A stretch of DNA of 64,000 nucleotides, from the IMG/VR virus record IMGVR_UViG_3300045988_051359. One strand, written 5' to 3'. Below, one piece after another: positions 63,060 through 64,000 of the stretch. Each line of letters begins with the position of its first letter. The stretch's first letter is position 1. The position numbers and the translations under genes were made by a program. The notes beneath the pieces were generated by a model. That model worked only from the letters and a program-made list of their open reading frames with translations. It made no database searches and was not told the origin of the DNA. This stretch comes from a virus.

Positions 63060-63124
63060 ACTTTATTTAATGAGTTTACCTATACACTCACGAGGTTTTA
63101 GTGAAATATTTAATAATAGCTACC

Positions 63125-63430: not shown

Positions 63431-63750
63431 CTTACCTATACGTTGCGAGGTTCTAATTGTTAGTGACTAATTAGTTTCAGCTTACTTATAGCATCGCCAC
63501 GTAAAGGCTTAGTCATGATGCCGCTCCCATCACGGGAGAATGAATAATTTTAACTTACTGTATTTATTAATTTAAATTCAAACGTAAAATAGCATCTTCC
63601 TGTGCCACACTCCTTTGCCTTATCTCACGATAAGACATCTCTCCAGTATCAAGGTCATACTGTTTGGTATAAGAGATGCTCTGCATTAGTCTCCGGGCGT
63701 ACCCATTATGATGCTAAATAATATAAAAAGAAGATTTATCATAGAAGATG

Positions 63751-63854
63751 TGAACCAGAGTAGATTCGAACTACTGACCTTTCTCGGATGAGAACGCTCT
63801 ACCACAGCTGCCAAAGGCTTCGCCCTCGTTAACAACCAACTGAGCTACTGGTTC
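63751..63854 (-). tRNA. tRNA-like RNA with a ~33-nt insertion in the D-loop and a non-canonical anticodon arm
   Basis: Perfect acceptor GAACCAG/CTGGTTC, T-arm AGTAG-TTCGAAT-CTACT, D-stem GCTC...GAGC interrupted by 'TTGTTAACGAGGGCGAAGCCTTTGGCAGCTGTGG' (contains an AGGGC-GAA-GCCTT hairpin). Anticodon region TTCTC-ATCCG-GAGAA has a 5-nt loop. Confidence 0.45.
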
Positions 63855-64000
63855 TAACTCAAACTACATCTTAAACTCTATAAGTCGCAACTCACATTCA
63901 CAGGAATAGTTTGCTTACATTTTATAATAGAGAAACTGACACCTCAATGTCTTGGGAGTAATTTGAGTTTTAATTGCCTGTCTATTCCAGGCTGCCACAC

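Follow-up and report, generated by a model that had tools for sequence, protein, structure and literature searches.

Transfer RNA (tRNA) genes of phages are usually read as tools of codon supply, recoding or anti-defence. What, then, is the role of a phage RNA that keeps the body of a tRNA and has no loop with which to read a codon? This question is raised by a locus in the IMG/VR virus record IMGVR_UViG_3300045988_051359, of which a stretch of 64,000 nucleotides (nt), here called the window, was analysed. On the minus strand of the window, a tRNA-like RNA of 104 nt extends from position 63854 (5' end) to position 63751 (3' end). A first-pass annotation, made from the letters alone, had compared this RNA with tRNA mimics such as the YrlA-type Y RNAs and, alternatively, with a tRNA that carries an unusual intron. 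We find that the element is real and conserved, that it resembles a tRNA without being able to decode, and that its D-loop carries a structured expansion specific to its lineage. The pattern of substitutions among its relatives indicates that it is selectively maintained as an RNA gene of one lineage of crAss-like phages. The case is thus one of a tRNA body that remained under structural selection after decoding was lost, in the most abundant phage group of the human gut. Gene finders skip such elements or label them as pseudogenes or suppressors.

Architecture of the tRNA-like RNA

Read on the minus strand, the RNA is laid out as GAACCAG UA GCUC AGU UGGUUGUUAACGAGGGCGAAGCCUUUGGCAGCUG UGGUA GAGC G UUCUC-AUCC-GAGAA AGGUC AGUAG-UUCGAAU-CUACU CUGGUUC A. 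The covariance search that had been proposed together with the first-pass annotation matched the Rfam tRNA model to it from end to end with a score of 43.5 bits (E = 4.7e-08, relaxed filters; the gathering score of the model is 29 bits). A model built from the family described below (R1) gives 88.6 bits, and ARAGORN makes no tRNA call at 63854..63751. The minimum-free-energy fold is a cloverleaf with an additional hairpin in the D-loop (-35.3 kcal/mol, z = -2.3). Fold and Rfam alignment together bear out the earlier statement that the acceptor stem, the D stem and the T arm are perfect. All seven base pairs (bp) of the acceptor stem are formed between its 5' strand GAACCAG (63848..63854), invariant in the seven distinct sequences of the family, and CUGGUUC (63752-63758), which together with the discriminator A occupies 63751..63758. 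The 4-bp D stem joins GCUC (63842..63845) to GAGC (63796-63799), and the T arm AGUAG-UUCGAAU-CUACU (63759..63775), with its 5-bp stem, canonical T-loop and G53-C61 pair, is invariant across the family. The canonical core is likewise present, with U8, A14, G15 paired to C48 (the last base of the variable loop AGGUC, 63776..63780), GG and then UA before closure of the D stem, and G26. The segment UGGUA (63800..63804), which provides the equivalents of G18 and G19 of the D-loop and A21, is invariant in both types of family member. CCA is not encoded, the 3' flank being CAU, and none of the window's tRNAs encodes it either.

The RNA departs from a tRNA in its D-loop and in its anticodon arm. In the Rfam alignment, the D-loop holds 35 extra nt, and 4 nt stand where the 7-nt anticodon loop is expected. 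The D-loop insertion that had been noticed at first is present, but it comprises 34 nt (63805..63838) instead of 33 nt and lies between nt 16 and 17 of the loop, a site exposed to solvent. The AGGGC-GAA-GCCUU hairpin ascribed to it also forms; it is, however, only the tip of a longer hairpin that consists of 7 bp, a UAA bulge, another 7 bp and the GAA loop. No further copy of the insert was found in the window or in the loci fetched for comparison (L numbers below), so that it is unique and gives no sign of being repeated or mobile, and an exact search of IMG/VR for its sequence returned no match. The anticodon arm UUCUC-AUCC-GAGAA (63781..63794) has 5 bp and a closed loop. It had been stated correctly that this arm cannot form a 7-nt loop, but the loop measures 4 nt and not 5 nt, because C65 pairs with G70. 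The stretch between D stem and T stem is 20 nt long, compared with 22-23 nt in a canonical tRNA; it lacks the 3 nt that would be needed to accommodate a 7-nt anticodon loop in any register. In place of a decoding loop of 7 nt with U33 and a purine at position 37, the RNA presents the tetraloop AUCC. The view that it is not a decodable tRNA thus holds, and it holds for the whole family, in which the loop is closed throughout.

Relatives and selection on the fold

The 3' half of the element was found in 5 IMG/VR contigs and in 11 metagenome contigs. The family comprises 17 loci, the window included, with 7 distinct sequences, and all of its members are crAss-like or come from the human gut. Type A, with the 34-nt insert and the AUCC loop, is represented by the window, by L106/L125/L135 and by L139. 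Type B (L080, L123, L124, L130, L131, L133, L134, L136, L137, L138, L140 and the 5'-truncated L132) is 73-74 nt long and free of the insert, has an ordinary D-loop of 10-11 nt and closes its anticodon arm, UUCUC-AUCUA/GUCUA-GAGAA, on a 5-nt loop. With this loop, type B scores 46.3-46.8 bits against the Rfam tRNA model. The model built from the family assigns 82-105 bits to its members, and ordinary tRNAs in about 1.2 Mb of phage loci reach at most 50 bits. The discriminator is A in the window and G in L130, L136 and L137; this variability is a weak argument against a fixed aminoacylation identity. None of the 28 tRNAs of the window is a close relative from which the element could be derived. 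A search of IMG/VR with three degenerate patterns for an ancestor with a canonical anticodon arm retrieved only family members, chance matches in coding sequence and unrelated tRNAs. No description of the element was found in the searchable literature on crAss-like tRNA-like RNAs, phage pseudo-tRNAs and tRNA-like anti-defence RNAs.

Substitutions within the family follow the fold. A compensatory change distinguishes the two types at D-stem pair 11:24 (C-G in type A, U-A in type B), and the Levitt pair 15:48 covaries, being G15:C48 in the window and in L125 and A15:U48 in L139 and in all type B members. In the stem of the insert, L139 has exchanged G19-C48 for A-U and shows three switches between G-U and Watson-Crick pairs, and one pair is broken. 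Not one of the 21 pairs of the cloverleaf is broken in any member. In a simulation with a simple model, in which sets of 5 random substitutions were placed in the core, all pairs and the Levitt pair were kept about 1% of the time. Because types A and B both carry the shortened arm, a normal anticodon loop was most likely lost first, and the pairs have been conserved since. L139 has GA in place of the first GG of the D-loop (RNA positions 18-19), and the UGGUA that follows the insert is invariant. This indicates that the second GG is the likely partner of the T-loop and that the insert is situated at 16/17.

The closed loop of type B is read by ARAGORN as that of a tRNA with anticodon CUA. We rejected this register; it is 7.2 kcal/mol worse than the register with 5 bp and a 5-nt loop, and it requires a C.A mismatch and a 3-nt variable loop. 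The variable loop AGGUY is destroyed by the CUA register, whereas the 5-bp/5-nt-loop register retains it in canonical form (AGGUU). A separate, canonical CUA suppressor tRNA (Sup-CUA) is present in 5/5 IMG/VR contigs that carry the element, each with an anticodon arm identical to that of the window's suppressor, and this co-occurrence makes the element dispensable for decoding. By its letters, the type B arm would correspond to a canonical UUCUC-AUCUAGA-GAGAA from which one GA was lost, and type A would have lost a further nucleotide and the CUA with it. The family may descend from a suppressor-like tRNA, though the element is not the suppressor of this genome.

The upstream noncoding RNA and its surroundings

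A structured noncoding RNA (ncRNA; 63856..63969, minus strand) precedes the tRNA-like RNA and ends 1 nt before its G1. It belongs to an unannotated family of crAss-like phages, with more than 120 IMG/VR loci among the matches listed (L001-L122 and the window) in which conserved flanks (CUCAAUAACUUCCCAAGACAUUGAGGGCACCAGUUUCUUA ... UAAGUUUUAGGUGUAAAAUGC) enclose a hypervariable middle of 22-113 nt that is wholly different between groups. RNAalifold, applied to 14 window-like copies, yielded 25 consensus pairs, 5 of which have compensatory changes; the helices P1 (CACC/GGUG) and P2 covary, and no Rfam family matches the ncRNA. It is usually found just 5' of a gene start. In type A, the 3' flank is remodelled and forms a 12-bp stem that closes the whole ncRNA (AACUCAAAUUAC / GUAGUUUGAGUU). 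In type B, a spacer of about 90 nt and a hairpin lie between the ncRNA and the tRNA-like RNA; the hairpin has a conserved loop (variant GUYUGUUGUGAAAYAGG) and is located 3 nt upstream of G1. A related hairpin without an Rfam entry, with a freely covarying stem of 6-7 bp and a conserved 14-nt loop GUCUGUGAAGAUAG, was counted 59 times in the loci covered by the count (65 times with the type B variant), always on the transcribed strand; two copies are situated in the tRNA array of the window (54376-54389 and 51408-51421, minus strand).

In 15 of the 113 loci with enough downstream sequence, the ncRNA is followed by a twister-like sequence (UAAUGCAGCC...AAGCC...GCAGAG), and it is only weakly true that the tRNA-like RNA replaces a twister at the same position. 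A twister ribozyme that had been read by eye in the downstream block GGGTACGCCC...TAATGCAGAGC was rejected, as it has no Rfam match. Rfam and sequence checks revealed neither a theta- or hepatitis delta virus (HDV)-like ribozyme nor an intrinsic terminator downstream of the tRNA-like RNA. A further block, GGGUACGCCC...UGGCACAGGAAGAUG, is present 3' of the tRNA-like RNA and also occurs without it.

In sister loci, the element is part of an island of 0.85-1.5 kb that is free of open reading frames (ORFs) and whose modules are shared in different combinations, and a RAGATH-1 hammerhead ribozyme is located 1-1.5 kb upstream of the element. The island of L131 (L131:4040-5512) is 1.47 kb long and looks like a multi-RNA locus; its right-hand part corresponds to window 63431-64000, and the RAGATH-1 hammerhead (L131:3720-3793) lies directly upstream of it. 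The six ORFs that adjoin the element have no Pfam or PHROG matches. About 8-15 nt before start codons, a motif AACCUC-stem-GUAUAGGUAA-stem was noticed, in the window at 63432-63452 and 63076-63097 (minus strand). Many crAss-like loci have it ahead of various genes, and it may be a signal for translation or transcription.

Look-alikes in other viruses

IMG/VR was also scanned for a D arm of the pattern GUAGCUCAGU...UGGUAGAGC with 20-50 extra nt. Beyond type A, the scan yielded two unrelated contigs that have exactly 34 extra nt at the same site and a 4-nt loop. One of them is L192 (4257-4361, minus strand; 28.7 bits against the Rfam tRNA model), whose acceptor stem is prolonged to a helix of some 25 bp (z = -6.6). 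The other one, L184 (6001-6104, minus strand), is GC-rich and lies close to an integrase and a reverse transcriptase. Neither look-alike gave a match by BLAST against GenBank phages. When both were aligned structurally with type A, 95% of the cells were paired, and 13 of 21 pairs showed changes on both sides. Two paralogues in L128 (4504-4619 and 4155-4242, minus strand), which were found via the anticodon arm alone, have tetraloop-capped arms and D-loop hairpins that follow G18-G19; a Bacteroidetes-type promoter is present about 14 nt upstream of copy 1. Hairpins in the D-loop also occur together with anticodon loops of 7-8 nt, namely in L188:3694-3780(+), a Lys(UUU)-like tRNA whose D-loop contains GGC-GAAA-GCC, in L201:1082-1175(-) and in L194:6519-6621(+), all of which are skipped by ARAGORN. 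A closed-loop tRNA-like RNA of 66 nt (CUGA-UUGU-UCAG) was seen at L066:212-277(-), directly 3' of a tag ORF (GNNFVTDYTQLAVA*) that resembles the one of a transfer-messenger RNA (tmRNA). ARAGORN calls a permuted tmRNA at L066:215-600(-), a region with three T-arm motifs, and because this call includes the closed-loop RNA we mention it as context and do not count it as an independent example.

It is possible, though rather doubtful, that these RNAs represent an undescribed class of phage tRNA mimics in which two features are linked, the closure of the anticodon arm by a loop of 4-5 nt and the enlargement of the D-loop by a structured element; the examples are few, and part of the sequence was prescribed by the search patterns. 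Should such a class exist, the RNA itself would have a dedicated trans-acting role in infection, and the D-loop arm would be its added binding surface.

Possible functions of the element

We tentatively favour, at somewhat less than even chances, that the element is a non-decoding, tRNA-shaped module that is matured by ribonuclease P (RNase P), 3' trimming and CCA addition and that punctuates a noncoding transcript. It would be transcribed within a long, ORF-poor and RNA-rich transcript, in which host RNase P would cut at G1 (63854) and would thereby also generate the 3' end of the upstream ncRNA. Trimming of the 3' end by RNase Z or exonucleases and addition of CCA would complete the tRNA-like piece, which would act both as punctuation and as a stabilising end-module. 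The tetraloop that closes the anticodon arm would keep the RNA out of translation. Since the constraints of translation would then have been lost, an insertion in the D-loop would be tolerated provided that it folds on itself, and selection would act on folding only. A module for maturation and stability is favoured because the features that are read by RNase P, by RNase Z or exonucleases and by the CCA enzyme have been kept (the 7-bp acceptor stacked on the 5-bp T stem, the T-loop, U8, A14, G18-G19, A21, G26, the variable loop AGGUC and 15:48), and the part that serves only decoding has been lost. As would be expected of a processing module, the tRNA-like RNA stands immediately 3' of a structured ncRNA, with a gap of a single nucleotide in type A. 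Parallels are a RAGATH-34 RNA that abuts a tRNA in the window, the closed-loop RNA that follows the tmRNA-like tag ORF in L066, and an arrangement in L128 in which a leader of about 130 nt is followed by the second closed-loop tRNA-like RNA and then by a tRNA-Met. If this proposal is correct, tRNA-shaped modules serve crAss-like phages, besides ribozymes, to punctuate long noncoding transcripts.

Several observations speak against such a processing module. Of the 113 ncRNA loci that extend far enough downstream, 90 lack both a tRNA-like and a twister-like sequence within 450 nt, and the tRNA-like block of L140 adjoins a truncated ORF, the ncRNA being absent. Copy 1 of L128 has its own promoter and nothing upstream that could be released. 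The nucleotide at position -1 is A or G; bacterial RNase P prefers U at this position. Furthermore, a mere cleavage signal would need neither a conserved anticodon stem nor a compensated D-loop hairpin, and the recurrence of the closed arm and the D-loop expansion in unrelated viruses suggests that the RNA itself has a job.

The main rival explanation, which we regard as possible but still unlikely, assumes such a job, in that the element would be a stand-alone tRNA mimic that acts in trans. The stable, mature RNA would be bound by a protein whose recognition depends on the body of the tRNA and not on the anticodon. Such a partner might be an enzyme that modifies or repairs tRNAs, a nuclease of a host defence directed at tRNAs, or a protein of the phage itself, and the RNA would serve as an uncleavable decoy, sponge or scaffold to which the D-loop hairpin adds a further contact surface. 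This is consistent with the compensated conservation of the anticodon stem and the insert hairpin, which exceeds the needs of a cleavage signal, with the two-feature design of the unrelated contigs L192 and L184 and of the two L128 paralogues, with the promoter of L128 copy 1, and with the tRNA-like block of L140, which moves between contexts as a module. However, no linked gene is conserved, the neighbouring ORFs lacking Pfam or PHROG matches, and the best-known tRNA-directed defences, the anticodon nucleases, read an anticodon loop that is absent here. Moreover, the hairpin is not essential to the family, because type B does without it, and the 'class' amounts to four lineages, three of which were found with patterns that fix part of the sequence. 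If the element does act as a mimic, it would represent a novel type of tRNA decoy or scaffold in phages, with an additional arm that looks engineered. A mimic and a processing module alike caution against counting such genes as suppressor tRNAs in recoding studies. Third in rank, and improbable in our judgement, is a pseudogene in decay, a paralogue of a phage amber-suppressor tRNA that became redundant beside the canonical CUA suppressor and has yet to be lost. The CUA that ARAGORN reads in the type B loop, the canonical Sup-CUA in all five IMG/VR contigs, a discriminator that is either A or G, and the other aberrant tRNA-like RNAs in crAss-like tRNA arrays would all suit decay, as would an arm that can be derived from the canonical one by the loss of one GA in type B and of one nucleotide more in type A. 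Decay is difficult to reconcile with the retention of 21/21 cloverleaf pairs since types A and B separated, one double compensatory change included, and with the covariation of 15:48 and the compensated insert stem, given that random substitution would preserve as much in about 1% of cases; nor was an ancestor with a canonical arm found in IMG/VR.

Three further readings are much less probable. The insert stands exactly between AGU and UGGUA, and its removal would leave a canonical D-loop AGUUGGUA, as would be expected if a small intron, or an intervening sequence removed by processing, interrupted the D-loop of a tRNA gene whose product is functional once the insert is gone; hairpin insertions in the D-loop are indeed present in the apparently decoding viral tRNAs of L188 (Lys UUU), L201 (GAA) and L194. 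As regards decoding, this idea of the first-pass annotation is effectively refuted. The anticodon loop remains at 4 nt after removal, and the comparison with homologous loci that had been suggested at the time showed insert-free homologues that are likewise closed, with a 5-nt loop, so that excision of the insert cannot restore a decoder. Non-canonical D-loop introns of archaeal tRNAs also place extra sequence inside the D-loop, but these introns have a bulge-helix-bulge and are cut out by a splicing endonuclease, after which the tRNA can decode; the element shares none of these traits. Its 34-nt hairpin, in which just one of the strands has a bulge (UAA), forms no bulge-helix-bulge (3-4-3), is far below the size of a group I intron and matches no intron family in Rfam at E <= 10. 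To our knowledge, no splicing endonuclease for such introns exists in bacteria or their phages, and we consider an intron highly improbable. No more credit is due to a YrlA-type Y RNA or, alternatively, to an attachment site that arose from the tRNA gene of a host. Some phages carry YrlA RNAs, which mimic tRNAs; their 5' and 3' ends are situated at the position of the anticodon stem (the Ro-binding stem), their acceptor hairpin is closed and a Ro60 gene is adjacent (PMC4201824). The element shares with them the non-decoding mimicry of a tRNA, canonical T and D arms and the covariation of 15:48, and the tip of its insert, GGCGAAG, fits the letters of the YrlA motif GNCGAAN0-1G. The corresponding sequence in L139 is GGUAAAG, though, and the motif is in a different place, not near the 5' end. 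The element is not permuted and has the opposite topology, with an open acceptor and a closed anticodon stem. No Y RNA family in Rfam matched it at E <= 10, and YrlA needs a Ro60 gene within a few kb on the same strand; a scan of the 21 ORFs in the window that reach 250 amino acids gave no match to Ro60/TROVE. The resemblance to Y RNAs that had been suggested at first is thus not supported. An attachment site would agree with the integrase that adjoins the L184 look-alike, but it would require identity to the 3' portion of a tRNA gene of the host and a neighbouring integrase. Among 185,579 species genomes (GTDB representatives), the 3' half of the element has no exact match and the 5' half has a sole match, in non-tRNA sequence, and none of the same 21 ORFs matches a Pfam integrase family, smaller ORFs being outside the scan.

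Comparison with known systems

As a mode of working, not as a homologue, the closest comparison for the proposed processing module is mascRNA of MALAT1 (and its counterpart in MEN-beta). There, too, a tRNA-like RNA with a shortened, non-decoding anticodon arm is found directly 3' of a structured ncRNA, and in our case RNase P cleavage would likewise set the 3' end of the ncRNA and the released piece could receive CCA. The mascRNA systems, however, are eukaryotic nuclear RNAs, whereas the upstream ncRNA described here usually occurs without the element, and the element has a full canonical D arm together with the 34-nt D-loop hairpin. One YrlA RNA has been reported to be cleaved by RNase P and to receive CCA (PMC4201824). 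The tRNA-like domain of tmRNA is similar in that a tRNA-shaped part is joined to an RNA that is not a tRNA, and tmRNA is encoded by this phage group. In tmRNA, the D stem is missing and the 'anticodon stem' opens into the mRNA-like domain, in contrast to the complete and closed cloverleaf of the element, and the window already has a full one-piece tmRNA.

With the amber-suppressor tRNAs of TAG-recoded gut phages, the element has in common that it is encoded by a crAss-like genome with 27-28 tRNAs and a suppressor (52262-52334) and that its insert-free relatives keep CUA in the loop. In contrast to these suppressors, its loop of 4-5 nt does not decode, and its sequence is unrelated to that of the genome's canonical suppressor. 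The code-change modules of gut phages include tRNAs that are associated with theta ribozymes (PMC10879173); the element differs from them as well, being followed by no theta/HDV-like ribozyme.

Genome setting and further RNA elements

The window is part of a crAss-like phage (Crassvirales). Its segment 63600-64000 has matches in only two GenBank phages, crAssphage cr6_1 and cr109_1, both of which are Suoliviridae. The replication module comprises NrdD, a DnaB-like helicase, a primase, a ligase and other helicases, and almost all features are located on the minus strand. ARAGORN identified 27 tRNAs, the CUA suppressor at 52262-52334 among them, and one further tRNA was matched by Rfam only. The set (30396-56669) covers 19 amino acids in addition to the CUA suppressor; a tRNA-Val was not found in the window by ARAGORN or Rfam. 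A second aberrant tRNA-like RNA at 54503-54572 (minus strand) scores 40.6 bits against the Rfam tRNA model and receives no ARAGORN call; its arm can close as ACUUACA-AAUUA-UGUAAGU, U33 is missing and the D stem is poor.

The one-piece tmRNA at 58290-58805 (minus strand; Rfam 55.7 bits), which has a plausible tag GNTEVRMAA*, was missed by ARAGORN. The RAGATH-34 RNA (86.9 bits; 56665-56762, minus strand) runs into a tRNA-Pro(AGG)-like sequence at 56598-56669, the two calls overlapping by 5 nt, and RAGATH-34 is also present in L123. In unannotated intergenic DNA of the two GenBank relatives, a weak twister-P1-like match that is below threshold (28.1 bits) was obtained for cr6_1 at L001:1233-1282(-), and a Hatchet ribozyme (92.8 bits) was detected in cr109_1 at L002:154-282(-).

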